Shown here: one piece after another, positions 18,976 through 47,776 of the stretch
How the letters are laid out: the number at the start of each line of letters is the position of its first letter
How positions within the stretch are numbered: position 1 is the first letter of the stretch
NCBI GenBank assembly: GCA_963804815.1
Contig: CAWDRU010000002.1
Coordinates: 7,126,939-7,190,938, forward strand
Source: Blastocatellia bacterium
GTDB lineage: Bacteria > Acidobacteriota > Blastocatellia > UBA7656
Direction: 5' to 3'
Length of the DNA stretch: 64,000 nucleotides
Position numbers and translations under genes: made by a program
The notes under the pieces: model-generated
Told to the model about the DNA's origin: nothing
The model's input: the letters and a program-made list of their open reading frames with translations, nothing else
The model's database searches: none

Positions 18976-19002
18976 GAATTCCTTTGGTTTGTGGTGGAGT
19001 AT

Positions 19003-19340
19003 CAGGGCTGTAACAAAGTAGCTTGACAATAGAAAAGAAAGGACCTAACTCGGTAATCTGTAAGTTGCAAGACTATGCAGAACCGGAGGAAGGTCTTTGA
19101 TGAAGTATAACACTGCTTCTGTTTTTGATGAGCCTCTACAATCGAGGGTGTCCGAAATTTTGTGTAAATCGGCTTTTCGACAATCTGATGGAAATATTGT
19201 GTGTGTGTGTAAATGCTATCCTTACGGACTTTGCCGACGTTGAGTGGCTTGATAGTCGAATGAGGCCAAAGGGATTTACACAATCTATCTGACCCCCCCC
19301 CCATCCACTTGAAGGGCTGAAGCTCATCCTACGGCGCTGA
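19003..19340 (+). mobile_element. Miniature (MITE-like) derivative of an ISAs1-family element. It keeps the terminal IR plus the first ~6 codons of the transposase, then a deletion junction and the opposite IR.
   Basis: 19003-19105 matches the reverse complement of 25960-26063 nearly base for base, including the ATGAAGTATA(A/C)CACTG transposase start. The inverted terminus ...AGACTTTGTTACAGCCG lies at about 19322-19338. Confidence 0.55.
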
Positions 19341-19485
19341 ATCAGACTTTGTTACAGCCGTGCCTCCCCCCTCTTATTTGGTTTTAACGAGAAACATGCT
19401 TTTGAGTTCATGACCGAAGTTTCTCCGCTTTCGGCACGGTTACTGGCTACAGGCTGGTTTATGCTCTCTCCTGTTTTAACTCCCT

Positions 19486-20691
19486 AGATGGACGGCACAC
19501 CAAGATAAGGAGGTGAGCCATCAGCAAATGGTATAATTACCGGATACTCAAAACACTTATTTTGTAAGGAGGTCCGGTGCTCTCTAAACAGGATCGTCTT
19601 GAAGCCATGCGCCGCTTCAAGCACAAGAAAACTAAATCTCATGAGCGCTTGCGCTACCACGCCCTGCTGCTCGTCACCGATGACTACTCTTTCCAGCAGA
19701 TCGCTGATCTGCTCTTTGTTGATCCTGAATCGATCTCGCGTTGGATCCAAATCTATCAACGTGACGGGCTCGATGGCTTGAAGAATAACCCACTGTGGGG
19801 CGGGGAGCGGGGACAGCGCTGGCTCAACAATGAGCAGTTGACCCAACTCGGTACGTTGCTCGACCAGGAAGGCATGCCGGGCACGGAGGTGGGCACTGGT
19901 TGGACCGTTCGCGCTATCATCAATCTGGTTCAGGAGCGTTTCTCGATCAGCTACTCTCAGCGCGGTATGCGCAAGATTCTGCGCACCCTGAACTTCAGTA
20001 GCCAGCGCGGTCGCCCGTTCTACAACCGGCGGACGCCCGCAGATCAACAGCGTTTCGAGAAAGAAACCCTTGAAGTTCTCGAAGAATTCGCCGATTCGGG
20101 CAAGCGTTTGATTCCACTGGCGGGCGATCAGACACGAGTCTATCTGGAAGGCACGGTCGGCAAGCGATGGAGTCGGCGCGGCCACCAACCGAAAGTGCCC
20201 TCGGCGTCGCGCCGCAAATACGCCGAGAACATCTAGGGAGCGGTGCACGTGGCAACAGGCGAGGAGGTAGCTCCCTTCTCGATAGATTTTCAGGATGCAG
20301 ATGCGACGATCCGGTGGTTTGAGATGGTGATTGAAGAGAATCCACGAGGGAAGATATTGGTGTGGCTGGACTCTGCACCGCATCTGGTGCACGAAGAGGT
20401 CGACGAGTGGCTTGAGAGGCAACAAAGAATTCGAGTGAAACGCTTCCCACACTACACACCGGAGGAGAATCCAAAAGAAGCGACGTGGAAGACGCTTAAG
20501 CAGGAAGCGAGTGTGCAGGGCTGGCATCCGACGAAAAAGAGTCTGTCGGAAGCGATAGATTGCTTTTATCAGTCGGTCAGACGACATAAGGTGAACTTTC
20601 TGGAGCGGTTCGGTTATGTCTGGAAGAGGGGACGTATCCACCCGCTGCCTCAATTATCATGAGTCGGCATTTTGGTGTGCCGTCCATCTAG
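19486..20691 (+). mobile_element. IS630-family element (copy A) with perfect 20-bp terminal inverted repeats. Its transposase is interrupted by an in-frame TAG.
   Basis: IRL CTAGATGGACGGCACACCAA is at about 19485-19504; IRR TTGGTGTGCCGTCCATCTAG is at about 20672-20691. Confidence 0.75.
19577..20662 (+). pseudogene. IS630-family (DDE_3) transposase with an in-frame amber stop at 20237-20239.
   Basis: ORFs 19577..20236 and 20243..20662 are in the same frame, separated only by TAG (...RKYAENI*GAVHVATGEEV...). HTH N-terminus and DDE C-terminus are typical of IS630/Tc1. Confidence 0.75.
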
Positions 20692-20693
20692 AG

Positions 20694-22082
20694 CATTGGC
20701 ATCTACACATGTTGGCCGGATCAGCCCGTATCATAGCGAGAAAATCCCGGTAGACTGAGACACGCTACTTGTCTGAGTTCATCGACACTGTATCGCTCAA
20801 GCGCATTCAGCACTGCTAGCAGCGTCCATAATCCAGCCAGCATCGCTGAGTCGGTCACTCGGCGGTCACGACGCATCTGTCTGCCACTCAATCGCACCAG
20901 GAGATTACGCGCCTGCTCGCTCTCAGGTGTCTGACCGCGCGCCAACTGCCAGACAACCACTGCCGCCATTGCTGTCACCAATAACCGTTTAGCTATTGCT
21001 TCGGCGCTCTCCTGTTGCCAATGCTCCAAATTATGGCCGCTGGATTTCAACAGCTTAAAGTAACTCTCTATTTTCCACCGCCACACATACCACTGCGCGA
21101 TCTGCTCTGCCGTCACCGTTTCAGGCAAGTTCGTCAGTAGCAGCCACTCCGCATACAACGATTCATCTGGTAAAACGATCCGGCTCACGACAAGCCTCAA
21201 CTGCAAAGCTTTGCCATAGACTCGCTCACGGGGCTGCTTGATGCCGCCCTTTTGTCGATGTGGGAAGGCCGGTCGGGTAATCGTCACCTTCGTTTCAGCC
21301 AGCAGTTGCTGCCCGACAAGTCCGGGCGCAACAGCAATTGCCTGGCCCAGCCGCAATGACAAGCCTGCTGCCACACGGCCCAGTCGCCGCCTCTCTCCTT
21401 CAAACTCCACCTGCGGTACTGCCCGCGCCCGCACAATAAAAGCTTCTCCTTGATCATCCCACTGTCGGTAATGACCAACCGAGTCGGCGGCGCGATCAAT
21501 AAGATGCACGACGGGCTTGGACAACTGCATCTTGCTGATGGTCGCCAGGGTGTCGGTGATTTCATCAAGGTGCGAGCAATCGGCCAATACCGGCGACTGG
21601 CGCGTCGTGTATAAACCATCATTGGCCCACAAGCTAAACGACAGCGGAGAGATGGGTGTGCCGTCACGATCAGATATCAATAAGGCAGTTTGCAAGCTGT
21701 AACCGAGCGAACGCTTATGACAGATGGCCTTGCGGTCGGCTTTACGGGTATGCAGATCGTAATTGAGTTCAGACCAGTCGTGAATAATCAGAGCAAAGTC
21801 GCCGGTTTCGTCTGTAAGCACTCGTTTGGCAGCGGCGATCAGCGGCTCGGCTAATTGAGGAAGCGAAACAGCCGGATTGCTATAAAAACGCCAGGCGGCC
21901 TGAGTGCTGGCGAAAGCAGTACCGGCAGCGGGCAAAGCCCGAAGCCCTGCGGCGACGGCCTGTGTTGGGTTCATCTGCTCGGTCACGAGTTGCTGATAGC
22001 GCCGTTGCAGGCGCAGTTCAAGATTGGGTGTTGCAAACACATTTTATAATATTAGCGTACTCGACATGTGTAGATGCCAATG
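20694..22082 (-). mobile_element. IS4-family insertion sequence, copy 1 (about 1389 bp), with perfect 18-bp terminal IRs and a 9-bp TSD CATCTAGAG.
   Basis: Ends are CATTGGCATCTACACATG ... CATGTGTAGATGCCAATG. Flanking direct repeats catctagag lie at about 20685-20693 and 22083-22091. Inserted at the very tip of the IS630-A right IR. Confidence 0.8.
20721..22040 (-). CDS. IS4-family (DDE_Tnp_1) transposase, intact, GTG start.
   Basis: 439 aa with YVWRWKIESYFKLLKS, the C-terminal IS4 signature (YREK-type). Identical to ORF 31336..32655. Confidence 0.85.
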   Translation of the reverse strand: MFATPNLELRLQRRYQQLVTEQMNPTQAVAAGLRALPAAGTAFASTQAAWRFYSNPAVSLPQLAEPLIAAAKRVLTDETGDFALIIHDWSELNYDLHTRKADRKAICHKRSLGYSLQTALLISDRDGTPISPLSFSLWANDGLYTTRQSPVLADCSHLDEITDTLATISKMQLSKPVVHLIDRAADSVGHYRQWDDQGEAFIVRARAVPQVEFEGERRRLGRVAAGLSLRLGQAIAVAPGLVGQQLLAETKVTITRPAFPHRQKGGIKQPRERVYGKALQLRLVVSRIVLPDESLYAEWLLLTNLPETVTAEQIAQWYVWRWKIESYFKLLKSSGHNLEHWQQESAEAIAKRLLVTAMAAVVVWQLARGQTPESEQARNLLVRLSGRQMRRDRRVTDSAMLAGLWTLLAVLNALERYSVDELRQVACLSLPGFSRYDTG

Positions 22083-22300
22083 CATCTAGAGCTTGGTAAA
22101 AAAATACCCCTTTGGCGTGAGTCCGAGGGGAATACTTTCTGTTGCCAGATTTCTTTCTCTCGGAGCCACACCCAAAGGGTACTATGACTTCTCACGCCGT
22201 AAGTTTCCTTACAGAGCAAGTATAGCAAACTGACAGAATCTGCAAATAGTTAAGCTGGGGATAACTCCACGCTACTCTTTAGACACCGCTCTCGTCGTTA

Positions 22301-22435
22301 TCAGGGTTCTATGTCTTCGTCTCGATCAGAAGGGTACTTAAGAGTCTGACCAGCTTTTACGTTCGTCTTAACTTCAGGAAAGTTTTGGTCTTCAATGTAT
22401 CTCACAAAGAATGGTACTTCGTTTTTAGTATCCAT
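22301..22435 (-). CDS. Small 44-aa acidic peptide (MDTKNEVPFFVRYIEDQNFPEVKTNVKAGQTLKYPSDRDEDIEP). Paralog of the peptide at 43868..44038. Not in the ORF track.
   Basis: About 60% identical to the 43868 peptide. Preceded on the minus strand by GAGG (SD) and a consensus sigma70 promoter: TTGACA - 18 nt - TATCTT. Confidence 0.55.
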   Translation of the reverse strand: MDTKNEVPFFVRYIEDQNFPEVKTNVKAGQTLKYPSDRDEDIEP

Positions 22436-22454
22436 AGTTACCTCTTGGGCAGAA

Positions 22455-22484
22455 AAGATACTCTTTGCATTGATGCAGTGTCAA
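22455..22484 (-). promoter_or_regulatory. Sigma70-type promoter (TTGACA-N18-TATCTT) for the small peptide gene. The spacer holds a TGCATCAATGCA palindrome.
   Basis: Minus-strand reading is TTGACACTGCATCAATGCAAAGAGTATCTT. The -35, the -10 and the TGCATCA spacer core are conserved with 43820-43849. Confidence 0.5.
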
Positions 22485-22602
22485 TCACTTATAGCAAATC
22501 CAGTTTGGCTGTCCCTGTGGATAACATACAGCGTCAAATAGAGATTACTGGGCATATTTATTTTTTTGCTATTTTTCCAGGCGGTTGCTTCGGTCTAAAT
22601 CG

Positions 22603-23817
22603 AAACCTATGAGATTGGCACAGATCAGGTTCTCTCTGATAAATCGATTGTTGCTACACACTCGATTTGTCTCGGAGAACAAGCTGTGCCCAACTCGACC
22701 ATACTTGACCTTCCGCAACCTCAGCAAGAACAGATGCTTTCTCAAATCCGTCAAGCCCGTTACGGTTACTTGCTCGCGCTGCACGTCCTTCTGCTTTGTG
22801 CCCCTGGCCGCACGCCTACCGAGATCGCTGCCTTCTTGTTCTGCTCGCCTTCTTCGGTCTATCGCATCGTCTCGGCTTATCACTGTCAGTCGCTCGGCTT
22901 TGCCTTCACTGAGGATGGCCAACCTCAACCTCCTGTGCCAACCTCTTGTCTGTCGCCTTCCTTGCGACGCTCCTTACTGGCATTGCTCAAAGCCGCGCCT
23001 CACGCCTTCGGTTGGTGTCGCACGCGCTGGAGTTGCGCAACTCTGGCTGCACAACTCAAAGTCAATCGTGGCATCACCGCCTCTGCCGATACCACCCGTC
23101 GCTGGTTGCATCAACTCGGCTGGGTTTGGAAGCGGGCCAAGCTCATCACTAAAGATGATGATCCGCAACGGGTCGAGAAGTTGGCACGAATTCGCTGGAT
23201 CTTTGAGCATATAAGCGCGAAACAACTCCTACTGTTTGCTGATGAACTCGACATCCACTTGTTGCCAAAAGTTGGCTATCAGTGGATGGAGAAAGGCAGC
23301 CAACTTGAAGTCTGCACGCCGGGTACAAATGAGAAGGACTATCTGGCCGGAGCTCTTGATATAGTCACAGGCCGTATGTTGCACTGCGTCTGGTTTCGCA
23401 AAACCAGCGGCCTGTTCATTGATCTGCTCAAGGTCATTGACCGAACCTACTCGGCCTATCAGTATACGAATATCTTCGTGGTTGTGGACAATTACAAAAT
23501 CCACAAAGCTAAGGCGGTCGAGCAATGGCTTCTGAGGCATCCACGAATAGAGTTGATATATCTAGCCGACCTACTGCCCGAAAGCCAATCCTATAGAGCG
23601 AGCCTTTGGAGATGTGCATGATAAATGCACGCGCAATCACAAGCGAAAGCGACTGCGGGATTTGGTTGGAGATGTGATCAAGCATTTGCGAGTCAATGGC
23701 CCGTGGAAATACAAGCTGTCTGAAATCTACTACATAGTAGAAGTCACAGCAGCGGTTGAAAAGATGGCTGCTGATGAAAGGTTAAAGGCTGCCGCTTGAG
23801 TGTCCCAATCTCACGCG
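22603..23817 (+). mobile_element. IS630-family element (copy B, different lineage from copy A). Its transposase is frameshifted by a 1-bp insertion near the C-terminus.
   Basis: Terminal inverted repeats about CTATGAGATTGGCACA ... GTGTCCCAATCTCAC. The transposase frame switches at about 23570: ...IELIYL then (+1) PTYCPKANPIERAFGDVHDKCTRNHKRKRL... Confidence 0.65.
22686..23799 (+). pseudogene. IS630-family transposase, frameshifted (ORFs 22686..23621 and 23614..23799).
   Basis: The DDE_3 C-terminus ...VVVDNYKIHKAKAVEQWL... continues in the +1 frame after a single inserted G in ctaGccgacctac. Confidence 0.7.
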
Positions 23818-23962
23818 GCCTGATTTAGTGCAGCCGCACATCATAGCGATGCAGCAAAGCAGGAGAATAGGCAACAGGTTATAGGGTTTACCTTTAGCTT
23901 GTCTAAAATCGGGAAGAAGTGATAAAGCTTGAGCAAGAGAAGGCACAGAAGTGCTCATAGGC
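23818..23962 (-). pseudogene. N-terminal fragment of a second ISAs1-family transposase, truncated by IS630-B.
   Basis: Minus-strand translation MSTSVPSLAQALSLLPDFRQAKGKPYNLLPILLLCCIAMMCGC... matches the DDE_Tnp_1-associated N-terminus of ISAs1-family transposases. It runs into the IS630-B right IR. Confidence 0.45.
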
Positions 23963-23964
23963 GT

Positions 23965-25154
23965 TCCTCCTAAGAAATTGATGTGTCAACCTCATTCTAC
24001 AGAGGAACGCCTCTTTCTCGCAGACAATGAATAGACCTTGCGGGATGGCTGAGGCCATTGGCAGTCTCCTGAATGCCGCAATGCTGTTTGAACGCGAGCG
24101 TTTCTTGAACGCTGCTCCTTATGAGCGCACCCAGGACCGTCGCGACTACTCTAACGGCTTCAAGGCAAAGCGGCTGCGCACGAGAGTCGGCGACCTCGAC
24201 TTGCGCATTCCACAAGTGCGCAACTCAGACTTCTATCCCCAAGCTCTTGAACGCGGCACTCGCTCAGAGCGCGCTTTGAAACTCTCACTGGCCGAGATGT
24301 AGGTGCAGGGAGTTTCGACTCGCAAGGTCAAAGCCATCACTGAGAAGCTGTGCGGCTTTGAAGTCACATCCGCCCAGGTCTCACGAGCAACTGCCGAGTT
24401 GAATGAACATTTCAAGCAATGGCGAGAGCGTCGGCTGGGGCCTATGCCTTACCGGCAAGTCGATGCCCGCTACGAACATGTTCGTGAGGGCGGGCTGGTC
24501 ATAGACGAAGCCGTTTTCACTGCTATTGGCATTGATCTTGAAGGCCGCCGTGAAGTGATAGGCACGAGCATCAGCCGAAGTGAGGCGGAAGTCCATTGGC
24601 GAGAGTTTCTACAGAGGCTTGTCGGGCGCGGGTTGAGCGGATTGGAGTTAATAACGAGTGACGCGCACTCAGGACTTGAGGCCACGCGCAAGGCAGTGTT
24701 GCCGAGCGTGCCCTGGCAGCGGTGTCAATTTCATCTGCAACAGAATGCTACCCAGTATGTGGTGAGAGTAGAGCAGCGAAAAGAGGTGGCGGCGGATATA
24801 AGAGCAATCTTCAACGCGCCTAATCGCAATGAGGCAGAGCGGTTGCTGGCAGCGGCGGTGAAGAAGTATAGCCAGAGCGCGCCGCGACTGAGCGTGTGGA
24901 TGGAAGAAAATCTGGAGCAGGGGCTAACAGTAATGAGTTTCCCTGCCGAGCATCAGAAGCAGCTGAGAACGACGAACCTGTGCGAGCGAGTAAATCGAGA
25001 GATAAAGCGGCGGACGAGAGTGGTGAGCATATTCCCGAATGCGCGATCACTAGAGAGGCTGGTGACGGCAGTGTTGATGGAGATAAGTGAGGACTGGCAG
25101 AGTGGTGCTCGCTACTTGACGATGACTTGAATTGGTTTCTTGTGAGGAGTGAAT
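23965..25154 (+). mobile_element. IS256-family element. Ends are approximate. The transposase is interrupted by an in-frame TAG.
   Basis: A Mutator-type transposase occupies 24027..25130. Putative imperfect terminal repeats lie about 23965-23990 and 25131-25157. It abuts or truncates the ISAs1 transposase at 25155. Confidence 0.55.
24027..25130 (+). pseudogene. IS256-family transposase with an amber stop at 24300-24302, where the conserved Tyr of EMY-x-GVSTRKV is expected.
   Basis: ORFs 24027..24302 and 24303..25130 are in the same frame (...LKLSLAEM*VQGVSTRKVKAITE...). The DDE and CxxH region ...PWQRCQFHLQQNA... is present. Confidence 0.75.
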
Positions 25155-26063
25155 TTACAGAAATAACATTGCACTATCCTGCTCAAAACGTCCGTGCTGC
25201 TTGTCTAGACTCTCGGCTCGCTCGAAATCATTACCGATGACCTTGAGGCGCGTATAGCCTCCTTCTATCTCAAACAGCGCGGCTATATCTGAACGCAGGC
25301 TGGCCTGGTTACCTTTCACTGTCCAGAGGTAATCTCCACCAGCTTCTACGACCAGTCGAGAGAGCTTACGTTGCGCAAACATAGCGTCGCCGGTAACGAC
25401 TTTTCCCTGCAAATCTATGCTTTTGAGCAGGCGGGGGGCGACCACCACTTCATTCTCTTTAGAGCCTACCTCCATCTGCATCCTGCATCAGCACGATTCC
25501 TTTATCCGGTAAGTGGGCTGCGAGTAAGTGCAAGCCTTGCTTTTGGCCAGCCCTTATCGTGCCTCTGAGCGCCTTCCCATCCAGGTTGATCTCTACGGCT
25601 TGCCCCGCATCAGGATCAGAGAGCAGGAAACGGCTGACGGCCTGTTGTAGTTGCTCAACATCAACTGCCTTTCCCAGTATTCTAGAATAGGTAATCGGAT
25701 GGGGCACGGTGTCGCGATCAAAGCCGAGAGTTTCACGTAGAAGTTCTTTGCGCAACTCTATCCACTGAACAATGCCGCGAGGTTCCTGCTCGCCAGCGAG
25801 TTTAGCTAGAATGACGAAGACCAAAGCTAAAGCGAGGGGGTAGCGAATCCCGTGTGGGTCACGGCGGTCATTGAGCTTATCGAGATGCTCATAGAGACTG
25901 CCGACATCAAAGAAGAAAGCTTCATCAATATCCTCAGGCAAAAAGGCAGCAGTGGTATACTTCATTGAGACCTTCCTCCGGTTCTGTTTAGTCTTGCAAC
26001 TTACAGATTAACCGGGTTAGGTCCTTCTTTTTAATTGTCAACCTACTTTGTTACAGCCCTGAT
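25155..26063 (-). mobile_element. ISAs1-family element. This is the right-hand portion, with a terminal IR at 26043-26063. The transposase is frameshifted and C-terminally truncated by the IS256 insertion.
   Basis: Transposase ORFs 25459..25965 (MKYTTAAFLPEDIDEAFFFDVGSLYEHLDKLNDRRDPHGIRYPLA...) and 25155..25481 read as one gene with a frameshift near 25470. Terminal sequence CTACTTTGTTACAGCCCTGAT. Confidence 0.6.
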
Positions 26064-26197
26064 GTTGGAACCGTATTCGTTTTTGAATCTGAATCGTTGT
26101 CGAATAGAAACATTTAAGTTTTCTGCATGGTTTTAGAAATCTTTTCCGTCTTATCCAAATGGGGGAAATCCAATAACAAAATTATAAGGAGAAAAGC

Positions 26198-26947
26198 ATG
26201 CATCGTTTCATGCCTTTCAATAGAGCACTGCTCTGTGCTCTCATCGCCCCCCTTCTACTATCGGCTGCTTCGACTGCACTTGCGCAGCAGAGCCGCCCAC
26301 GGTTTACAAAAGCTTTCGTAGTCGATGACAGATTATCTGCGCTCAGGCACAACGCCGATGTGAAATCGCCAGTTATTCACAGGCTTCGCATCGGACGACC
26401 TGTCTTCATTTTTGCATCAAAGACCGATGGCTCCAACCCCGCAGGATTTTATCGCGTTGCTGTGTCGCGCAGGACTCGCGGATGGATTCACGCAGCCGCG
26501 CTTGCTGTGGTGGGGCGAGCGGGCGAAGATGATCGTTTCATGAAACTCATTCAAAATACCGGCGACGGCATAGATCGAATAATGCTGTGTCGGCTCTTTC
26601 TCGAACACTTCAATCGCTCTGCTCTCGCTCCGCGCGCGTTGCTTGCAATCGGAGAAGAAGCCGATCAGGCAGCAGCGGCGCTCACTCGTTACGCGCGCAA
26701 GAGACTCAAAGAACTCGATGAGAAAAACGGCAACGCAAGCCTTCGCGATTATTACCTGAATGACCCGGGACTGGATCGTTACAGCAAACTGCAAGTCGCC
26801 TTTGACTTCAAAGATTCAACAGCCGAATACAGCTATGACGGCAAGTCGTATCGCGAAATCATACGACGTTTTCCCGACAGCAAAGAGGCGCAGATTGCTC
26901 GCGCGCGACTTGACCGCGCGGGCGGGCGACTGGCCCGACAGAAATAG
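26198..26947 (+). CDS. Secreted hypothetical protein.
   Basis: 249 aa with signal peptide ALLCALIAPLLLSAASTALAQQ. Confidence 0.5.
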   Translation: MHRFMPFNRALLCALIAPLLLSAASTALAQQSRPRFTKAFVVDDRLSALRHNADVKSPVIHRLRIGRPVFIFASKTDGSNPAGFYRVAVSRRTRGWIHAAALAVVGRAGEDDRFMKLIQNTGDGIDRIMLCRLFLEHFNRSALAPRALLAIGEEADQAAAALTRYARKRLKELDEKNGNASLRDYYLNDPGLDRYSKLQVAFDFKDSTAEYSYDGKSYREIIRRFPDSKEAQIARARLDRAGGRLARQK

Positions 26948-27178
26948 AGCAGCCCGCAGGAAACGATGAATGATGAACGCGCATTGAGAATAAAGCGGGC
27001 GCTGTCTTTCATCACTCATCATTCATCGTTTCTTTTCATTCTCAAAGCCCTCTGCAATCTTTCAGTTAAACGCTTTCTGCTTCTTGCAAATCCTGTCAGT
27101 TTCAGTTTAGATATTTTCGTGCGATATCCACAGTATGGCGGTAGAAAACGTCTTACGATGACGGAGGAATAGAGGAAC

Positions 27179-27355
27179 ATGCCAAGAGGAACGTGTCCCG
27201 AATGCGACGAGGACGTCCAGGTCGATGAAGATACCGATAAGGGCGATGTCGTCGAATGTGAAGCTTGCGGTACGCAACTGGAAGTCGTTGGCCTTGACCC
27301 AATCGAGCTTGATGTGGCAGTGGAAGAAGAAGAAGAAGATTGGACTGAGACTTAG
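27179..27355 (+). CDS. lysW: LysW-like amino-group carrier protein: a 58-aa zinc ribbon with an acidic EDWTE C-terminus.
   Basis: Translation is MPRGTCPECDEDVQVDEDTDKGDVVECEACGTQLEVVGLDPIELDVAVEEEEEDWTET. Matches LysW/ArgW features: CPEC...C..CG...LEVVGLDP..L and a terminal E-rich tail ending EDWxE. GGAGGAATAGAGGAAC sits upstream. Not in the ORF track because it is under 60 aa. Confidence 0.55.
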   Translation: MPRGTCPECDEDVQVDEDTDKGDVVECEACGTQLEVVGLDPIELDVAVEEEEEDWTET

Positions 27356-27502
27356 CGCAAGCCGCGCCGCGATCATGCAGCAATCAGCATAACCATGGAT
27401 TTGAATGTAGAGGCCACCTTGCACAGGTGGCTTCTATATTGTGAGTGCGTTGAAGGCGGATTGCCTGATAAAGGCGCGCTAACTCTCAATCCTAAAGGCC
27501 GG

Positions 27503-27910
27503 ATGATGACAACTATTATTGACAATAACAAGACGAAGAAGAACGGTCGAACATTGCGCGTGTTATTCAACTGTTCTAAGTGCCCTGCTTATTGCTGTAG
27601 CTATGATCGAGTAGAGGTCACTAAGACAGATTTGCTTCGCATCGCCAAGCACTTCGGCCTATCTTACAAGGAAGCCGAAAAGCGTTATACAAAGATCGCT
27701 TTCGGCGACCGTGTGCTTCGCCATCAAAAAGATCACATCTTTAAACGAGTCTGCCAGTTTCTCGATACCAAAGAGCGACGCTGCACGATCTATCATGCAC
27801 GGCCCGCCGTCTGCCGCGAGTACCCGGACAGCCTGCGATGCGGCTATTACGACTTTCTCGCTTCGGAGCGCCGCCGCCAGGGCGATGAAGAATTTATTCC
27901 CTCGGCATGA
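27503..27910 (+). CDS. YkgJ-family (CxxCxxCC) zinc/iron-chelating domain protein.
   Basis: ...LFNCSKCPAYCCSYDRVEVTKTDLLRIAKHFGLSY...CQFLDTKERRCTIYHARPAVCREYP is a UPF0153/YkgJ signature. The start is set at MMTTII; the ORF extends to 27395. Confidence 0.6.
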   Translation: MMTTIIDNNKTKKNGRTLRVLFNCSKCPAYCCSYDRVEVTKTDLLRIAKHFGLSYKEAEKRYTKIAFGDRVLRHQKDHIFKRVCQFLDTKERRCTIYHARPAVCREYPDSLRCGYYDFLASERRRQGDEEFIPSA

Positions 27911-27966
27911 ATAATCAGCCGTCAATCAGGCTGAGAAAATAACGCTTAGGCGAGTAAGGCATTGCG

Positions 27967-29316
27967 TTGATAAAGCCGAAACAGGTCAGCCCCGCGCGCC
28001 GCGCCGCGTTCGACATTCTGCGCCGCGTAGAGGCCGAAGGCGCGTATGCTTCGGTTCTCATCTCTCGGCTTCCCGAATCGAACCTGTCGCGCGAAGACCG
28101 CTCGCTCGCGCAAGAGATAGCGCTCGGCGTGTTGCGCCGAAGGCGACTGCTCGATTATTTCATAGAACGCTACTCGCGCCGCGCCACATCCCGCCTCGAC
28201 CTCTCTGTTTTGATAGCGCTTCGCATGGGGCTTTATCAGTTGCGCTACCTGACACGCATTCCGCAGCGCGCGGCAGTCAACGAATCTGTGAATCTTGTGA
28301 AACTGGCGCGCGTCCACAGCGCTGCCGGAATGGTCAACGCCGTCCTGCGCAACGCGGCGCGCCATATGGATGAAGGCTTCGCCGAAGAAATTTCAGACCC
28401 GCTTGAAAGACTCTCAATCGAACTTTCTCATCCGCGATGGATGCTTGAACGCTGGATGAAATCACTGGGCGATGCAGAAGCGCGTGCGCTCGCGCTTGCC
28501 AATAACGAACCGCCAACGACAGCTTTTCGCGTCAACACGCTCCGCGCCACTGTTGATGAAACGCTCGCACATCTTAAAGATGCGGGCCTCGGCCTGCGCC
28601 CGTCGACTTTAACGCCCGGCGCGTTTATCGTTGAAAGCGGCGCGGCGTCACTACTGGCCGAAGCCGCAGAGCGCGGCATCATCTATATTCAGGATGAAGC
28701 GTCGCAACTGGTATCGCGGCTGCTCGACCCTGAAAGCGGCAGCCGCGTGCTTGACCTGTGCGCAGCGCCCGGCTCCAAGTCGTCTCATATAGCGGCGCTC
28801 GCCGAAGGAAAAGCATGGATCGTAGCATGTGACATTCATCCGCACAGGCTCGCGACGCTTGGCGCGACGTGTCGAAAGCTCGGCATCGATTCGATTGATC
28901 GCGTTGCTCTGGACGCGACTACTGCGTTGCCTTTTGCCGATAGCGCCGTCGGGTTCGACCGCGTGTTGATTGATGCGCCATGCACGGGCACGGGCACGCT
29001 CCGTCGAAACCCTGAGATCAAGTGGCGACTTGAGGCTGATACGATTGAGCGCCTCGCTCGCGTTCAATTGCGATTGCTTGAGCGCGCGACCGATGTGCTC
29101 AAGCGAGGCGGGCGACTGGTTTACTCAACCTGTTCAATCGAGCGCGAAGAGAATGAAGAGGTGATCGGGCGGTTCATCGAAAGCGGCGCGCCTTACAGAT
29201 TGCTGCGCCCGGACGCTCATTTTGACCTCATCACTGCCGAAGGCTTTGTGAGAACATTTCCACACCGTCACGGCGCGGATGGTTTCTTCGCCGCCGTGCT
29301 TGAAAAAACCGGTTGA
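27967..29316 (+). CDS. rsmB: 16S rRNA (cytosine967-C5)-methyltransferase RsmB/Sun family.
   Basis: 449 aa with a NusB-like N-terminus and a SAM-MTase core (...VLDLCAAPGSKSSHIA..., ...DRVLIDAPCTGTGTLRRNPEIKW..., ...GGRLVYSTCSIEREENEEV...). Confidence 0.85.
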   Translation: MIKPKQVSPARRAAFDILRRVEAEGAYASVLISRLPESNLSREDRSLAQEIALGVLRRRRLLDYFIERYSRRATSRLDLSVLIALRMGLYQLRYLTRIPQRAAVNESVNLVKLARVHSAAGMVNAVLRNAARHMDEGFAEEISDPLERLSIELSHPRWMLERWMKSLGDAEARALALANNEPPTTAFRVNTLRATVDETLAHLKDAGLGLRPSTLTPGAFIVESGAASLLAEAAERGIIYIQDEASQLVSRLLDPESGSRVLDLCAAPGSKSSHIAALAEGKAWIVACDIHPHRLATLGATCRKLGIDSIDRVALDATTALPFADSAVGFDRVLIDAPCTGTGTLRRNPEIKWRLEADTIERLARVQLRLLERATDVLKRGGRLVYSTCSIEREENEEVIGRFIESGAPYRLLRPDAHFDLITAEGFVRTFPHRHGADGFFAAVLEKTG

Positions 29317-30248
29317 GCGCGAAAGCGAAAGTAGGTTTTATGAGACGAGTAATCCTGAGCCTGTTGATGGTTGTTTTCTCGGTTTCGATGATGAACGCGG
29401 ACAGTACCGTTCAGAAAAAGACTCAGATAATAATTCTCGGAACAGGGACTCCGAACGCCGACCCTGAGCGGTCCGGCCCGTCGGTCGCCATTGTAGTAAA
29501 TGATACGCCGTACATAATTGACTTCGGGCCGGGCGTTGTTCGCCGCGCGGCTGCGGCTTTCCAGAAAGGCGTCGAAGGGCTTGCGGTCAGTCGGCTAAAG
29601 ACTGCTTTTGTAACTCACCTGCACTCCGATCACACGGTCGGATACGCCGATTTGATCTTTACCCCGTGGACGCTGGATCGGAAAGAGCCGCTTGCAGTCT
29701 ACGGCCCCAGAGGCATCCGTGCGATGACTGCGCATCTGCTCGCGGCATACAAAGATGACATCCGCATACGAACGAGGGGGCTTGAGCCGTCCAACCACAC
29801 GGGCTTCAAAGTCATCGCGCACGAGATAAAGCCCGGCCTTATCTACAAAGATGCGAATGTCACGGTCAAAGCTTTTCTCGTAAAACACGGCTCGTGGCCT
29901 CAAGCGTTCGGTTACAGATTTGAAACATCGGACCGTACTATAGTCATCTCAGGCGATACCACGCCGAGCGCGAGCGTGATCGATAATTGCAACGGCTGCG
30001 ATGTGCTGATTCACGAAGTCTACTCGACCGCAGGGTTTGCCCGCAGAACTCCTGAATGGCAAAAGTATCACTCGCGTTTTCATACGTCCACGCGCGAGCT
30101 TGCAGAGATTGCGACAAAAGCCAGACCCGGATTGCTCATTCTTTATCACCAACTGTTCTGGGGCGCGACCGATGCGGATTTGATCAAAGAGGTGCAACAG
30201 ACCTATCACGGAAAGGTAGTATCGGGTCGCGACCTCGATATTTATTAG
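29313..30248 (+). CDS. MBL-fold metallo-hydrolase, exported.
   Basis: Signal peptide, then THLHSDHTVGYADLIFTPW (HxHxDH motif) and later ...CDVLIHEVY... Confidence 0.7.
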   Translation: MSAKAKVGFMRRVILSLLMVVFSVSMMNADSTVQKKTQIIILGTGTPNADPERSGPSVAIVVNDTPYIIDFGPGVVRRAAAAFQKGVEGLAVSRLKTAFVTHLHSDHTVGYADLIFTPWTLDRKEPLAVYGPRGIRAMTAHLLAAYKDDIRIRTRGLEPSNHTGFKVIAHEIKPGLIYKDANVTVKAFLVKHGSWPQAFGYRFETSDRTIVISGDTTPSASVIDNCNGCDVLIHEVYSTAGFARRTPEWQKYHSRFHTSTRELAEIATKARPGLLILYHQLFWGATDADLIKEVQQTYHGKVVSGRDLDIY

Positions 30249-30263
30249 CGCAGAGGTTCTATT

Positions 30264-31229
30264 ATGAAAAGCGATGTGACGATCAACGATATTCAACAGG
30301 CAAAGGGGCGCATAGCTTCAATCGTTCGCCGCACGCCGCTCGAACATTCCGCATGGCTTTCAACCGAGTTAGAGCGCGATGTACGGCTAAAACTCGAATG
30401 CTTTCAGGTGACAGGCTCGTTCAAACTTCGCGGCGCGATGGCGAAGCTTTCTCGATTGACCGAAGCTGAGAGCGCGCGCGGCATATTGACTGTTTCGGCT
30501 GGCAATCATGGACTGGCCGTTGCTCACTGCGCCAGCGCGCTCTCGCTTGATGCCACGATAATCGTGCCGCGCTCGGCCTCGCCCACGAAGGTCGCTGCTA
30601 TTCGTCGTTATCCGGTCACGCTCATCGAGCGCGGCGCAGACTATGACGAAGCCGAACTGGCGGCGCGCGAAATGGAGCGCGAAACGGGTGCGACGTTCGT
30701 TTCACCATATAACGACGCCGATGTGATAGCGGGGCAGGGAACCATCGCGCTTGAAATTCTGGAAGACGCGCCTGATGTTGACGCCATCCTTGTGCCGGTC
30801 GGAGGCGGAGGGTTGCTGGCGGGAGTTTCAGTAGCCGTGAAAGCCAACTATCCGCACATCGAAGTCTACGGCGTGGAGCCGCTCTCTTCGCCCACGATGT
30901 ACGAAGCGCTTCGCGCGGGCCGCATCCTTGAGATAAAAGAAGAAGCGACGATAGCCGACGGGCTGGCCGGAAACATCGAAGCGGGCTCGATCACGTTTCC
31001 GCTCGTCGCGCATCTGGCCGACGGAATTATTCTTGTCAGCGAAGAGTCGATGCGCGATGCAATCAGGCGCGTAGCGCGCGAAGATCACATAATGATCGAA
31101 GGCTCGGCGGCGGTCGCCATCGCCGCGCTCGCAGACGAGCGACTTAAAGGTCAGCGTACCGTTGCGGTAATCACTGGCCGCAACATCAGCCTCGATCTGT
31201 TCGCAGGCATAATCTCGAATCACAAGTGA
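30264..31229 (+). CDS. PLP-dependent threonine/serine dehydratase family enzyme.
   Basis: 321 aa. LECFQVTGSFKLRGA is the PLP-lysine motif; ...TVSAGNHGLAVA..., and the glycine loop ...VPVGGGGLLAGV... Confidence 0.75.
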   Translation: MKSDVTINDIQQAKGRIASIVRRTPLEHSAWLSTELERDVRLKLECFQVTGSFKLRGAMAKLSRLTEAESARGILTVSAGNHGLAVAHCASALSLDATIIVPRSASPTKVAAIRRYPVTLIERGADYDEAELAAREMERETGATFVSPYNDADVIAGQGTIALEILEDAPDVDAILVPVGGGGLLAGVSVAVKANYPHIEVYGVEPLSSPTMYEALRAGRILEIKEEATIADGLAGNIEAGSITFPLVAHLADGIILVSEESMRDAIRRVAREDHIMIEGSAAVAIAALADERLKGQRTVAVITGRNISLDLFAGIISNHK

Positions 31230-31308
31230 AGATTTACACTTGTTTGGGTTTGAATGTGGATTCACCGCAGCGCCCTGGGCGGCCCTGCGGTGAACCGGTC
31301 TTATATTT

Positions 31309-32697
31309 CATTGGCATCTACACATGTTGGCCGGATCAGCCCGTATCATAGCGAGAAAATCCCGGTAGACTGAGACACGCTACTTGTCTGAGTTCATCGA
31401 CACTGTATCGCTCAAGCGCATTCAGCACTGCTAGCAGCGTCCATAATCCAGCCAGCATCGCTGAGTCGGTCACTCGGCGGTCACGACGCATCTGTCTGCC
31501 ACTCAATCGCACCAGGAGATTACGCGCCTGCTCGCTCTCAGGTGTCTGACCGCGCGCCAACTGCCAGACAACCACTGCCGCCATTGCTGTCACCAATAAC
31601 CGTTTAGCTATTGCTTCGGCGCTCTCCTGTTGCCAATGCTCCAAATTATGGCCGCTGGATTTCAACAGCTTAAAGTAACTCTCTATTTTCCACCGCCACA
31701 CATACCACTGCGCGATCTGCTCTGCCGTCACCGTTTCAGGCAAGTTCGTCAGTAGCAGCCACTCCGCATACAACGATTCATCTGGTAAAACGATCCGGCT
31801 CACGACAAGCCTCAACTGCAAAGCTTTGCCATAGACTCGCTCACGGGGCTGCTTGATGCCGCCCTTTTGTCGATGTGGGAAGGCCGGTCGGGTAATCGTC
31901 ACCTTCGTTTCAGCCAGCAGTTGCTGCCCGACAAGTCCGGGCGCAACAGCAATTGCCTGGCCCAGCCGCAATGACAAGCCTGCTGCCACACGGCCCAGTC
32001 GCCGCCTCTCTCCTTCAAACTCCACCTGCGGTACTGCCCGCGCCCGCACAATAAAAGCTTCTCCTTGATCATCCCACTGTCGGTAATGACCAACCGAGTC
32101 GGCGGCGCGATCAATAAGATGCACGACGGGCTTGGACAACTGCATCTTGCTGATGGTCGCCAGGGTGTCGGTGATTTCATCAAGGTGCGAGCAATCGGCC
32201 AATACCGGCGACTGGCGCGTCGTGTATAAACCATCATTGGCCCACAAGCTAAACGACAGCGGAGAGATGGGTGTGCCGTCACGATCAGATATCAATAAGG
32301 CAGTTTGCAAGCTGTAACCGAGCGAACGCTTATGACAGATGGCCTTGCGGTCGGCTTTACGGGTATGCAGATCGTAATTGAGTTCAGACCAGTCGTGAAT
32401 AATCAGAGCAAAGTCGCCGGTTTCGTCTGTAAGCACTCGTTTGGCAGCGGCGATCAGCGGCTCGGCTAATTGAGGAAGCGAAACAGCCGGATTGCTATAA
32501 AAACGCCAGGCGGCCTGAGTGCTGGCGAAAGCAGTACCGGCAGCGGGCAAAGCCCGAAGCCCTGCGGCGACGGCCTGTGTTGGGTTCATCTGCTCGGTCA
32601 CGAGTTGCTGATAGCGCCGTTGCAGGCGCAGTTCAAGATTGGGTGTTGCAAACACATTTTATAATATTAGCGTACTCGACATGTGTAGATGCCAATG
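31309..32697 (-). mobile_element. IS4-family insertion sequence, copy 2. Identical to copy 1, with a 9-bp TSD CTTATATTT.
   Basis: Same 18-bp terminal IRs. Flanking direct repeats cttatattt lie at about 31300-31308 and 32698-32706. Inserted between the dehydratase and pirin genes. Confidence 0.8.
31336..32655 (-). CDS. IS4-family transposase (identical to 20721..22040).
   Basis: 439-aa protein identical to copy 1. Confidence 0.85.
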   Translation of the reverse strand: MFATPNLELRLQRRYQQLVTEQMNPTQAVAAGLRALPAAGTAFASTQAAWRFYSNPAVSLPQLAEPLIAAAKRVLTDETGDFALIIHDWSELNYDLHTRKADRKAICHKRSLGYSLQTALLISDRDGTPISPLSFSLWANDGLYTTRQSPVLADCSHLDEITDTLATISKMQLSKPVVHLIDRAADSVGHYRQWDDQGEAFIVRARAVPQVEFEGERRRLGRVAAGLSLRLGQAIAVAPGLVGQQLLAETKVTITRPAFPHRQKGGIKQPRERVYGKALQLRLVVSRIVLPDESLYAEWLLLTNLPETVTAEQIAQWYVWRWKIESYFKLLKSSGHNLEHWQQESAEAIAKRLLVTAMAAVVVWQLARGQTPESEQARNLLVRLSGRQMRRDRRVTDSAMLAGLWTLLAVLNALERYSVDELRQVACLSLPGFSRYDTG

Positions 32698-33571: not shown

Positions 33572-34069
33572 TCACTTCGCAGCAATTACCGCGTAACTGC
33601 GCCCGCTGTATAGCCGAATGCCCTCTGCCGCTTTCGTCATCGTAAGCGGGCGCGGGCGTTTGAGCGCGCTGTCTTTGGTGATGCTGGCCGAAAGCAAAGC
33701 TCCGCCGCCAATATCAAAGATGTTCAGCTTGTCTTCAGAGAAGCCGAAGCCGTATGCCCCCGGCGCAAGCTCCGAGCCGCCGACCGTGATGCGCGAATCT
33801 GTAATAAAAAAGCCCTGATATTTTGCCTGAATCTCGGTTGAGTAACCGGACGTATCCACAAGCGCCGCGATGACGAATCGTTTGACCCCAAAGCGAACTG
33901 CCGCCGCATTGCGCATCTGTGTAGGCGCGCTCTGGCCTTCGTAATAAAAACTCTCCGGCACCACGCGCTTTAATTCTGCGCCGCTGAGGATCGCGGCAGG
34001 CTCCTGCGCGATTGCTGTAGTGAACGACAAAAGCATCATTATCACCGGCATCCATAGGCGTTTCGGCAT
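33572..34069 (-). CDS. Secreted hypothetical protein.
   Basis: Start at MPKRLWMPVIMMLLSFTTAIAQE (signal peptide), which avoids overlap with the upstream gene. Confidence 0.45.
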   Translation of the reverse strand: MPKRLWMPVIMMLLSFTTAIAQEPAAILSGAELKRVVPESFYYEGQSAPTQMRNAAAVRFGVKRFVIAALVDTSGYSTEIQAKYQGFFITDSRITVGGSELAPGAYGFGFSEDKLNIFDIGGGALLSASITKDSALKRPRPLTMTKAAEGIRLYSGRSYAVIAAK

Positions 34070-34116: not shown

Positions 34117-34686
34117 TCAATCGCGCCCAACACCAAGCGCGTCGGCAACGCGGTTGATGTAATTGAACCATGCTGCGATCAGTGTGATCTGCAAAATCGT
34201 CTGGTCGTCAAAGCCTGCGCCGTGCAAAAGCTCGTGATCCTGCTTTGTGATCTTTGTAGCATCCTTCGTCAGTTTCACCACGAAATCGAGCATCACGCGA
34301 TCCTGCTCAGAGATATTGGCTTTTGTGTAATCCTCGCGCAGCGACTGAACCAATTCGTCATCCAATGTGACTCGACGCAGAAACTCTGCGTGCGATTCGA
34401 TTCAGTAATGGCAGCGATTCGTGACCGAAACCATCGTGGTTATCATTTCGTGCTGGCGTCTGGTGAGCTGTAGCTCTGGCGACATCAACACGCCGAACGT
34501 CGAAAACGCATGATAGAGAGCGTCGGGAATGAGACTGTGCGATGCGACGATTCCGGCGGCTTCGCCTTCGGGAACCGTATGAACTGGCGACGCATACTCC
34601 TGCGGGTAAAGATGGCGTTGATCTTCGACGGCGTGCCGCAACTGCTCGTTTGCTTCTGACAACGGAATAGTTTTGATCCACGTCAT
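34117..34686 (-). CDS. AhpD/carboxymuconolactone-decarboxylase-family (peroxidase-related) protein with an in-frame UGA at 34402-34404 in the CxxC redox motif. Candidate selenoprotein.
   Basis: ORFs 34402..34686 and 34117..34365 are in the same frame. Read-through gives ...[10 protein letters not shown]-[UGA][11 protein letters not shown]..., matching the N.C.YC..SH motif of TIGR01926 AhpD-like proteins. A 7-bp stem ACGCAGA/UCUGCGU with a GUU-containing loop begins 10 nt after the UGA. AGGAG lies upstream of the ATG. Confidence 0.55.
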
Positions 34687-34688
34687 TA

Positions 34689-36035
34689 TTATTTCTCCTG
34701 CTTTTTACGGAAGACGAGATGATAAACCGGAGCGCCGAGCGCCACAACCGCACAGCCCAGCGCCGCCTGCTCAGGGTTATTTGCTGCCAGCATAACTAAC
34801 AGCATAATTACGAGCGCGAGAAATATCACAGGGGCCATAGGATAACCGGGCGTGTGAAACGCCTCGGCTGATTGCGGATTTTTTCTCATCACGAACACAG
34901 CCGCGACCGTCAATCCGACAAACACGACCGTCACGAATACAAAGTACGCCACGATCTGATTGAACGTGCCGACGGCCACCAGCAGCGACGCGAGGGCGGC
35001 TTGCAGAACGCAGGCGCGGGCGGGCGTGTTGAATCGAGGGTGTAGTTTTGCAGCCATATTCAGGAACACGCCGTCGCGCGCCATCGCATAATATACGCGC
35101 GGCGCTGTGATGATTACCGCAAGCAGACTGCCCAGCACAGAGACTATTACTATGCCTGAAAAAACCTGCCCGCCCGCGCGGCCAAAAAGAATTTCTCCGG
35201 CCTGCGCGGCGAACGTTTCGCCCGAAGTCGCGCGATCAATCGGCACAAGATAAATGAATGCCGCGCTCGTTATGATATAGACGAGCGTGACGATGCCGAC
35301 TCCGAATACGAGCGCGCGCGGCATTGTGCGAACGGGGTCGCGCACTTCGCCCGCAAGCTTGCTTGCGTCCCACCACCCGCCGAATGAAAAGAACGCCGCG
35401 ACCATTCCACCTGCCAACGCGCCAGCCAGCGGCGCAGACCCCGCGCGTTGCGCAACGAATGGAGTGAAGTTGGACCAGTCGCCCAGCCCAAGGCAGAATC
35501 CCCATAAAACTATCAGCGCAAGCAGCCCGAGTTTGAGTATCGTGAGCCACCTCATGAGCCACGCGCCGAGTTGAACGCCCAGGATGTTTGCGGCTGCCAT
35601 CAGGCAGATCGCCGCAATCGCAACAGCCTTCGTCCCAGTCGTTGAAAGTTTGATTATGTAGCCGACATAACTGGCCGCCCCTGTGGCCAGCGCAGCCGTG
35701 ATGCCGGGGTCCATCACGAGAAAGCACTTCCAGCCATAAAGAAAGGCAAGGCGCGGCCCATAGGCTTCGCGCAGGTAAACGTATCCACCGCCCGCTTCGG
35801 GAAAGCGCGCGGCCAGCCCGCCGTAACAGAGCGCGCCGCTTATAGCCATCCCGCCCATCACCAGCCACACGACCATCACCCACATCGGCGAGCCGAGCGA
35901 TTTCGCCATATCAGCCGGAGTCAGAAAAATGCCAACCGCTATGACTTCGCCCGCGACCATTGCCGTTGCCGACAGGAGACCGAGTTGCCGCCTTAAGCCG
36001 CTTTCGGGTTGCGCTTTCTGTGTCACATTCAACAC
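34689..36035 (-). CDS. APC-family amino acid permease.
   Basis: 448 aa with 12 predicted TM helices, typical of the amino acid/polyamine/organocation family. Its stop is 2 nt from the downstream AhpD-like gene start. Confidence 0.75.
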   Translation of the reverse strand: MLNVTQKAQPESGLRRQLGLLSATAMVAGEVIAVGIFLTPADMAKSLGSPMWVMVVWLVMGGMAISGALCYGGLAARFPEAGGGYVYLREAYGPRLAFLYGWKCFLVMDPGITAALATGAASYVGYIIKLSTTGTKAVAIAAICLMAAANILGVQLGAWLMRWLTILKLGLLALIVLWGFCLGLGDWSNFTPFVAQRAGSAPLAGALAGGMVAAFFSFGGWWDASKLAGEVRDPVRTMPRALVFGVGIVTLVYIITSAAFIYLVPIDRATSGETFAAQAGEILFGRAGGQVFSGIVIVSVLGSLLAVIITAPRVYYAMARDGVFLNMAAKLHPRFNTPARACVLQAALASLLVAVGTFNQIVAYFVFVTVVFVGLTVAAVFVMRKNPQSAEAFHTPGYPMAPVIFLALVIMLLVMLAANNPEQAALGCAVVALGAPVYHLVFRKKQEK

Positions 36036-39133: not shown

Positions 39134-39652
39134 TTAAGACAACCTGTACTCGAACATGAATCGCCCGATTTGCATTGTGCCTTTGCTGCCGCTGGCCGCA
39201 GGGGTGATTAAAAAAGAGCGAATTGGGCCACGCCTCGCATCTCTTTGCGCCTTGATTGCGCCAAGCATTTTCCCGCTGGCCGCTTCGTAAAACCTGACCT
39301 CGACCGTATCATCATCCACACGCTTGTAGCCGAACACATACTCGCCCGGCTGTAGCGCCACCTCGCCTACAGAAACCTGTACCTGCGCGATCAGGAAATG
39401 CGAATATTTGCCTTCGGCAGCATACCCTGCCGTGATCAGCACAGCGCCCGCGATGAATTTACCCTGACCGTCAGTCACCCCCGAAGCCGTGCGGAATTCC
39501 GTTTCGATGCGCTCCTTTTCAACAACGGCTCTGGCTGGAATGACCGACCTCAACTCCTTCTCGGTCGCCTGCCGCCAGATTGCGAAAACCGAAGCCGAGC
39601 AAATAAGAATCAGTGAGCAAATAAGAATCGGTGCGCTCAAGATGTTTTTCAT
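39134..39652 (-). CDS. Secreted hypothetical protein.
   Basis: Start at MKNILSAPILICSLILICSASVFA (signal peptide). Sits upstream of, and on the same strand as, the TonB-dependent receptor. Confidence 0.4.
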   Translation of the reverse strand: MKNILSAPILICSLILICSASVFAIWRQATEKELRSVIPARAVVEKERIETEFRTASGVTDGQGKFIAGAVLITAGYAAEGKYSHFLIAQVQVSVGEVALQPGEYVFGYKRVDDDTVEVRFYEAASGKMLGAIKAQRDARRGPIRSFLITPAASGSKGTMQIGRFMFEYRLS

Positions 39653-39946
39653 GAAATTTTTTCGCTCCACCGCGCGCAATCTTAGCATCCGGACAATGAA
39701 GGCAGACAGCGAAAAAGATTGCGCGCGGCAAAACGCTTTTATCAGGCACTGGCACATCCTTTGGATTTCGCGGTTTGAGTCGTAAACAAGAAATGGGGTG
39801 TAAAGACTGTCGCCTTTACACCCACAAAATCCGCTCATTAAACTTTGAGGTTACCTTAGTACGAGCAGAGAATACCCTGATTGGGAATTCCTGTCATTAA
39901 ACCAGGGTATAAATTTTAACTATAACTTTAGTTATAGACCGGGCGG

Positions 39947-44127: not shown

Positions 44128-47776
<3,649 letters not shown>

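Follow-up and report, generated by a model that had tools for sequence, protein, structure and literature searches.

Selenoproteins of the AhpD-like family with a CxxU redox motif are already catalogued in bacteria. The family was described from the Sargasso Sea metagenome (PMC1088965), was counted as 'AhpD-like 1, COG2128, CxxU' with 299 selenocysteine (Sec) members in Table 2 of the Global Ocean Sampling survey (PMC2398784), is listed as 'AhpD-like protein, TIGR01926, CxxU' in a 2026 review of prokaryotic selenoproteomes (PMC13188914) and serves as a worked example in BSepDB (PMC13326102). In Mycobacterium tuberculosis AhpD, Cys133 is exposed and cross-links to AhpC while Cys130 is partly buried (PMC6626918), and the proton-relay residues of this enzyme and of Pseudomonas aeruginosa PA0269, which has Tyr50 at the position of the tyrosine considered below, have been published (PMC3141380). 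With respect to the recoding signal, the 17-nt upper stem-loop of the Escherichia coli fdhF selenocysteine insertion sequence (SECIS) suffices for SelB binding (PMC11431864). Acidobacteria include Sec users (PMC1794560), for example Occallatibacter riparius (PMC12013277), and a literature search found no paper linking Blastocatellia with selenocysteine. Here we describe an AhpD-like gene with an in-frame UGA in a 64,000-nt stretch of contig CAWDRU010000002.1 from a Blastocatellia bacterium (assembly GCA_963804815.1), referred to as the window. A first-pass annotation of this DNA had proposed a member of this known selenoprotein family, and the catalogues above agree that the family is known.

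Two open reading frames (ORFs) on the minus strand, 34402..34686 and 34117..34365, lie in one frame with a TGA as the single interruption. The first-pass annotation had reported this arrangement with the TGA at 34402-34404, and its coordinates were exact in the ORF list; translation of the minus strand of 34117-34686 likewise bore out a single read-through protein of 189 aa. In GenBank the gene is entered twice, as 'hypothetical protein' MGA9769608.1 (94 aa; locus tag WBV94_11245) and as 'peroxidase' MGA9769607.1 (82 aa), and the same 94 aa and 82 aa split stands in JGI and ENA annotation, as had been foreseen for standard gene callers. The locus is identical in GCA_049590935.1, which assembles the same organism from short reads, with identical copies across independent assemblies and read sets. 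We consider it very probable that the two ORFs are one gene for a 189-residue AhpD-like (TIGR01926, CMD superfamily) thiol/selenol oxidoreductase in which the UGA of codon 95 is recoded to Sec by means of a SECIS hairpin.

A protein search returned 1141 homologues, and the best 120 of these were classified at the Sec position by motif search. The residue printed there was W in 76, Cys in 41, Leu in one and Ser in one, with P0090 left unclassified by the motif search. The DNA behind a printed W was TGA in two cases (P0001/L002 and P0008/L035) and a genuine TGG in a third (P0038/L001), and P0050 had TTA at this position. In both JGI cases traced to DNA the printed W was an artefact of gene calling, and most of the printed W residues are probably artefacts of the same kind on short contigs, where metagenome gene callers presumably chose a code-4 model. 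The database proteins that print W also raised the question of whether TGA is reassigned to Trp or Gly; this was rejected, since 12 of 26 well-supported genes in the window, this gene included, end in TGA, which makes it the commonest ordinary stop there. One homologue available as protein only (P0059) has Ser at the Sec position together with a His-to-Asn change in the motif.

The codon itself was surveyed in 80 metagenome loci and 80 loci from ~78 different species-representative genomes, with 72-79 % protein identity to the window gene. One of the genomes with the TGA form is the complete 7.49-Mb chromosome OY970193.1. Nearly all were from Acidobacteriota (Pyrinomonadaceae, Blastocatellia, Terriglobales and one Chloracidobacterium bin), with a few Gemmatimonadales and Dormiibacterota bins; one retrieval pattern contained 'YC', so that the bias, if any, was against TGA. 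The aligned codon was TGA in 159 of 162 sites, TTA in two and TGG in one in the first census, and TGA was also present in locus L109 and in a second copy of the gene in L077, both found later. In all, at least 160 related loci carry TGA against three with a sense codon. Conservation in orthologues had been proposed as a check on the gene, and the opposite pattern, TGA at this locus alone with sense codons and no hairpin in the orthologues, was not what the census returned. Downstream of the TGA no further stop occurred over 92 codons in 158 of 159 loci, and 61 % of the changed codons were synonymous, which demonstrates purifying selection on this half of the gene. In a rough neighbour-joining tree with no support values most TGA forms fell in one group with a few Cys, Leu and Ser forms nested inside, a pattern that fits the known dynamic exchange of Sec and Cys.

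These data bear directly on whether the gene is a nonsense pseudogene, in which a TGC or TGT (Cys) or TGG codon mutated to TGA here and left two dead ORF fragments. The fragments annotated in GenBank, JGI and ENA are what such an event would leave, and TGG or TTA does stand at the site in some relatives. Against this are the breadth of the TGA form, the downstream frame kept open under selection, and the freezing of synonymous sites in the hairpin in TGA forms only, as described below; that the related TGA loci are all assembly artefacts of one sequence is excluded, as they comprise 151 distinct sequences. We attach next to no probability to a pseudogene, and on the comparison of related loci a lone nonsense mutation is excluded. 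With respect to individual loci, L129 (10282 onward) may be a true pseudogene, since a further in-frame stop follows 52 codons past its Sec codon, and the second TGA-plus-hairpin copy in L077 lies on the opposite strand near a contig end.

The first base of the hairpin is the 11th past the UGA. The first-pass annotation had described a 7-bp stem (ACGCAGA/UCUGCGU) around a loop with GUU, 10 nt after the UGA, and both the sequence and ViennaRNA agreed. Whether 17, 36 or 71 nt were folded, it was the minimum free energy (MFE) structure; by itself the 17-mer gave -8.2 kcal/mol (z = -4.5), and only 1 of 200 shuffles folded as well. The published consensus for bacterial SECIS (bSECIS) elements asks for a loop of 3-9 nt, a stem of 4-16 bp, 16-37 nt from UGA to loop, an MFE <= -7.5 kcal/mol and G in the first two loop positions (G then G/U) (PMC13188914). 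With a 3-nt loop starting GU, a 7-bp stem, 17 nt from UGA to loop and the energy given above, the hairpin satisfies all of these constraints. It resembles the minimal fdhF element in its size of 17 nt, in starting at nucleotide 11 past the UGA and in a loop that opens with G-U; it differs from fdhF in its sequence and loop size, with a GUU triloop and no bulged U, and SelB would bind here by analogy.

Synonymous-codon entropy was scored per column over 154 codons of 153 distinct TGA sequences and used in place of covariation. It was <=0.2 bit in exactly six consecutive codons, +4 to +9 (CAC GCA GAG TTT CTG CGT, encoding H-A-E-F-L-R), and 0.4-2.3 bit in all other degenerate codons, including the two that directly flank the hairpin, Ser +3 (1.9 bit) and the invariant Arg +10 (2.2 bit). 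The six frozen codons coincide precisely with the hairpin, a pattern that shows selection on the RNA beyond the needs of the protein. The 17-mer was identical in 152 of 159 TGA loci, and the seven variants changed the two terminal pairs or turned A-U into G-U. The spacer between UGA and hairpin had the same length in every relative, and the core GCAGAGTTTCTGC occurred 165 times in 1.72 Mb of examined DNA, always at this site. As a control, the Cys forms comprised four distinct genes only (L164, L165, L167 and L168). Each had 2-3 synonymous differences from the frozen 18-mer, and in three of them the hairpin did not fold; among Cys forms residue +5 varied (A, V, L, T), and in TGA forms it was always Ala (GCA). 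Both the geometry and the frozen synonymous sites thus favour the earlier proposal that the element has the position and shape of a bacterial SECIS.

Several observations weigh against recoding by this element. The stem is invariant, and because of this compensatory covariation is absent and cannot be scored, so that the structural support consists of the frozen synonymous sites. The control with Cys forms is limited to its four distinct sequences; one of these (L164) still folds a similar hairpin, and the peptide AEFLRR is kept in the Cys forms too, so that part of the self-complementarity follows from the protein sequence. A search of Rfam with E values up to 10 gave no family that matched the hairpin. 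Three relatives with a sense codon at the site keep an intact hairpin, and the Sec position is therefore occasionally lost. Finally, the 64-kb window, which is part of a 7.9-Mb contig (7,921,682 bp), contained none of the Sec machinery. With respect to the three sense-codon loci (L001:954, L003:2597 and L020:1860, as 0-based codon offsets), TGG occurred once and TTA twice, each one step from TGA; since the hairpin is still intact in all three, they are either sequencing errors or cases where Sec was lost recently in one step.

With Cys substituted for the internal stop, the read-through protein scored 113.3 bits against the NCBIfam model TIGR01926 'peroxidase-related enzyme' (curated cutoff 81.8, E 1.1e-32) and 37.2 bits against Pfam CMD (cutoff 23), which places it in the family that the first-pass annotation had named. 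It missed the cutoffs of TIGR00777 (AhpD sensu stricto, M. tuberculosis type; 19.6 vs 191.95 bits), where the active-site segment alone matched, of the NF041238 AhpD_rel_CFYUT (seleno)protein (61.8 vs 175) and of the NF053654 YciW-related (seleno)protein (32.1 vs 310). The latter two are related selenoprotein families of which this gene is not a member. As with the published AhpD-like selenoproteins of COG2128/TIGR01926, the gene combines the same hidden Markov model family, the same placement of CxxU and a SECIS in the coding region just downstream of the UGA, and in both settings Cys homologues outnumber or accompany the Sec forms. It differs in origin: in the portions of the literature available to us the published Sec members are marine metagenome reads and scattered genomes, and the present clade is from soil Acidobacteriota (Blastocatellia/Pyrinomonadaceae, Terriglobales).

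The redox motif N-x-C-x-Y-C/U-x-x-[SA]-H is present as N90-R-C92-H-Y94-U95-I-E-S-H99, with Glu80 located 12 residues before C92. Among 52 homologues E80, N90 and C92 were invariant, and Y94 and H99 were conserved in >=90 %. The UGA fell on the second cysteine of CxxC in alignments with Cys homologues and with the closest solved structures by sequence (2pfx, 3c1l, 2oyo, 2prr and 6k40), as the first-pass annotation had suggested should be checked. These structures, from Silicibacter (2pfx), Mesorhizobium (3c1l, Mlr4105) and Deinococcus radiodurans (6k40, AhpD) among others, share with the window protein a length of ~190 aa and the N-x-C-x-Y-C-x-x-x-H context; they differ in having Cys where the UGA stands here, and identity is only 24-31 %. 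Four of them (2pfx, 3c1l, 2oyo and 2prr) are structural-genomics 'uncharacterized peroxidase-related proteins'.

The fold was assessed on a proxy, a 72 % identical homologue (P0030), in place of the window protein. Its AlphaFold model (predicted local distance difference test score 85.6) forms a single all-helical domain that runs across the UGA position and superposed on 2pfx, 6k40 and 2prr with template modelling (TM) scores of 0.79-0.81 over 184-186 columns, compared with ~0.5 for the M. tuberculosis AhpD structures 1knc and 1gu9. In this model the CxxU lies at the N-terminus of helix 92-105, and two central helices flank the site. Because the superposition extends over 184-186 columns, the two annotated fragments are, as modelled, halves of one domain.

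This arrangement also speaks to a reading in which the locus makes two separate polypeptides (94 aa and ~82 aa) and the inverted repeat is a protein-binding DNA palindrome, a pause site or an attenuator. Gene callers see a possible TTG start for the second ORF, and the hairpin is indeed a perfect DNA palindrome. The TTG, at codon +13, is present in 36 % of relatives only, the stop would split the active-site motif with C92 upstream and H99 downstream, the modelled domain is single with central helices on both sides of the site, and the palindrome is found only 10 nt after this TGA and nowhere else in the 1.72 Mb. Two independent products are accordingly very hard to credit.

Residues 77-115 of the single read-through protein align gap-free to positions 115-153 of the TIGR00777 profile, and because of this match Glu80, Cys92, Sec95 and His99 line up as counterparts of Glu118, Cys130, Cys133 and His137 of M. 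tuberculosis AhpD, whose E118-x11-C130-x-x-C133-x3-H137 pattern is thus retained (PMC6626918, PMC3141380). The protein differs from that enzyme in the profile score and fold similarity given above, in having Tyr at the His132 position, as in P. aeruginosa PA0269, and in that no AhpC gene is adjacent here. The first-pass annotation had placed the UGA at the 'resolving' Cys. This part of the proposal did not hold: in M. tuberculosis AhpD the second Cys, being exposed and cross-linking, is the attacking residue (PMC6626918), so that by analogy Sec95 would replace the attacking residue and occupy the exposed position, as is usual in selenoproteins.

From these correspondences a working mechanism can be proposed. 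At the UGA the 17-nt hairpin would recruit SelB with GTP and Sec-tRNA(Sec) to the ribosome. The resulting C92-x-x-U95 redox centre at the helix N-terminus would be flanked by Glu80, Tyr94 and His99, the counterparts of the AhpD proton relay. Sec95 would most likely attack an oxidised partner, which may be a peroxiredoxin in its sulfenate or disulfide form or else a small disulfide or hydroperoxide, and Cys92 would then resolve the selenenyl-sulfide.

The Sec machinery required for this would be encoded in the source genome. A Pfam scan of ~45 ORFs of the window found no SelA, SelB or SelD domain, and ARAGORN found no tRNA gene in the window. In the fetched loci of relatives (~1.7 Mb, ~0.4 % of each genome) ARAGORN found nine tRNAs, none of them tRNA-Sec, and tblastn with an E. 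coli SelD query gave no match in the examined DNA, again ~0.4 % of the relatives' genomes. A scan for same-frame ORF pairs parted only by TGA gave no second convincing selenoprotein gene in the window; the other such pairs were non-coding frames inside real genes, or neighbouring genes. The absence of sel genes from the window, together with the frequency of Sec loss in bacterial evolution (PMC1794560), would be compatible with a relic, that is, a lineage that uses Sec and a source genome that has lost the machinery, with translation ending at codon 95. Once the machinery is lost, decay or conversion to Cys is expected; here the hairpin is still a perfect 17-mer, the frame past the TGA is still intact, neither the TGA nor the ribosome-binding site has changed, and the locus is identical across the independent assemblies and read sets. 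A relic is therefore improbable, with a small chance of being correct.

The UGA could also be decoded as something other than Sec, with an allo-tRNA, a SelC*-type tRNA(Cys) or near-cognate Trp read-through inserting Cys, Ser or another residue. Allo-tRNAs in Acidobacteria or soil sequences derived from them may be nonsense suppressors, SelC* tRNA(Cys) mimics tRNA(Sec) in other phyla (PMC5389517), and the inserted residue is here deduced from the sequence. Opposed to this are the position, loop and energy of the hairpin, all of which fit the SelB-dependent bSECIS model (PMC13188914), the location of the site at the catalytic Cys position of a documented CxxU selenoprotein family (PMC2398784), the cost of a general opal suppressor where TGA is the commonest stop, and the lack of any tRNA gene in the window. 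We give such decoding a slim chance, and a similarly slim one to its variant in which the hairpin is a recruiting or pausing signal for a UCA-anticodon allo-tRNA or for a SelB-delivered SelC*-like tRNA(Cys).

As a Sec-encoding gene, the locus is of a kind already known and adds a well-supported, mis-annotated member to the catalogued AhpD-like CxxU family. Its value lies in annotation and ecology and not in a new principle. What is added is a Sec form that dominates in a large clade of soil Acidobacteriota, comprising the ~78 species-level genomes and many soil metagenome contigs. Because the TGA form is dominant among the closest relatives, Sec decoding, and hence a selenium requirement, is implied to be widespread in abundant soil Acidobacteriota. 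Split annotation and a printed W can mislead alignments and family models. The compact 17-nt SECIS, near-invariant across very diverged genes, is a handy sequence tag for finding this selenoprotein and lends itself well to studies of SelB specificity in Acidobacteriota. The coordinates of the gene and its parts are collected in Table 1.

Table 1. Features of the AhpD-like selenoprotein locus (positions in the window; putative roles as argued in the text).
Feature	Position	Strand	Details	Basis
Full-length AhpD-like (TIGR01926) selenoprotein gene	34117..34686	minus	189 sense codons, UGA at codon 95	sequence, translation, HMM (hidden Markov model) match
Start ATG	34686-34684	minus		read from sequence
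Internal TGA, read as selenocysteine	34404-34402	minus	residue 95, second-Cys position of CxxC	translation, conservation, homologue alignment
Terminal stop TGA	34119-34117	minus		read from sequence
Spacer, UGA to hairpin	34392..34401	minus	AUCGAAUCGC, 10 nt; encodes I-E-S and first base of H99	sequence
SECIS hairpin	34375..34391	minus	ACGCAGA-GUU-UCUGCGU, 7-bp stem and GUU loop	fold, synonymous freeze
Hairpin 5' arm	34391-34385	minus	ACGCAGA	
Hairpin loop	34384-34382	minus	GUU	
Hairpin 3' arm	34381-34375	minus	UCUGCGU	
Active-site segment	34390..34449	minus	E80-x11-C92-H-Y94-U95-I-E-S-H99	translation, TIGR00777 profile alignment
Active-site Glu codon	34449-34447	minus		
Active-site Cys codon	34413-34411	minus		
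Active-site His codon	34392-34390	minus		
Shine-Dalgarno-like AGGAG	34695..34699	minus	8 nt 5' of ATG, within end of permease gene	read from sequence
APC/LAT-like amino-acid permease, upstream	34689..36035	minus		AA_permease_2, 3.9e-57

The permease gene directly upstream most resembles an L-type amino acid transporter (LAT) in NCBIfam, below any curated cutoff. Two bases separate its TAA from the start codon of the selenoprotein gene, and because of this proximity the two genes are probably co-transcribed. The first-pass annotation had placed the gene in an operon after an APC permease; the pairing stands at this locus, with the AA_permease_2 match and the adjoining TAA, and does not define the gene elsewhere. 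Of ~108 loci whose sequence reaches far enough upstream, ~25-33 (roughly a quarter to a third) have a permease directly before the gene, as do several Cys forms. A conserved operon was rejected on these counts, since a downstream gene for a 165-aa protein recurs in only three loci and the other neighbours of related loci vary. It is conceivable, although unsupported, that the selenoenzyme acts with the LAT-like permease and reduces cystine, selenocystine or another oxidised amino acid after its import.

The downstream 165-aa ORF (33572-34069, minus) has an N-terminal signal-like segment, lies 47 nt from the selenoprotein gene and was seen in three related loci only. Neither this ORF nor a 234-aa ORF at 39134-39838 (minus), which adjoins a TonB-type receptor, had a Pfam or NCBIfam match. 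Among the Cys forms, P0087 (JGI 3300047160) and P0076 (L165:3713-4801) precede a gene for a protein with EF-hand and T4_deiodinase/Redoxin/AhpC-TSA matches, which is a possible redox partner and whose family also has Sec members. In L165 this EF-hand/deiodinase-like gene looks split; it was rejected as a Sec gene, and the apparent split was attributed to frameshift noise in a long-read assembly.

Elsewhere in the window, a molybdenum-cofactor riboswitch (Rfam RF01055, 66 bits) at 8851-8982 (+) stands directly before ORF 8972-12334 (+), which encodes a 1120-aa TonB-type outer-membrane barrel protein (CarboxypepD_reg and OMP_b-brl_4); more usual targets of this riboswitch are a molybdate transporter or a molybdenum-cofactor biosynthesis gene. 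A small Oxidored_molyb ORF (8068-8577, minus) lies divergently upstream of the riboswitch. The stretch 17466-32655 is rich in insertion sequences (IS), with an rve integrase (17466-18308), two identical 439-aa DDE_Tnp_1 transposases (20721-22040 and 31336-32655), a DDE_3 gene (22686-23621), a Mutator-family transposase (24303-25130) and a DDE_Tnp_1_assoc gene (25459-25965), and in L169, the organism's short-read assembly, the break falls precisely at the IS copy adjoining a pirin gene. The ORF at 55670-57400 (+) codes for a 576-aa protein homologous to animal haem peroxidases (Pfam An_peroxidase, 1e-107). Finally, on the minus strand gyrB (44128-46626) adjoins a recF-like SMC_N/AAA gene (46568-47776), a layout typical of the vicinity of a chromosomal replication origin.

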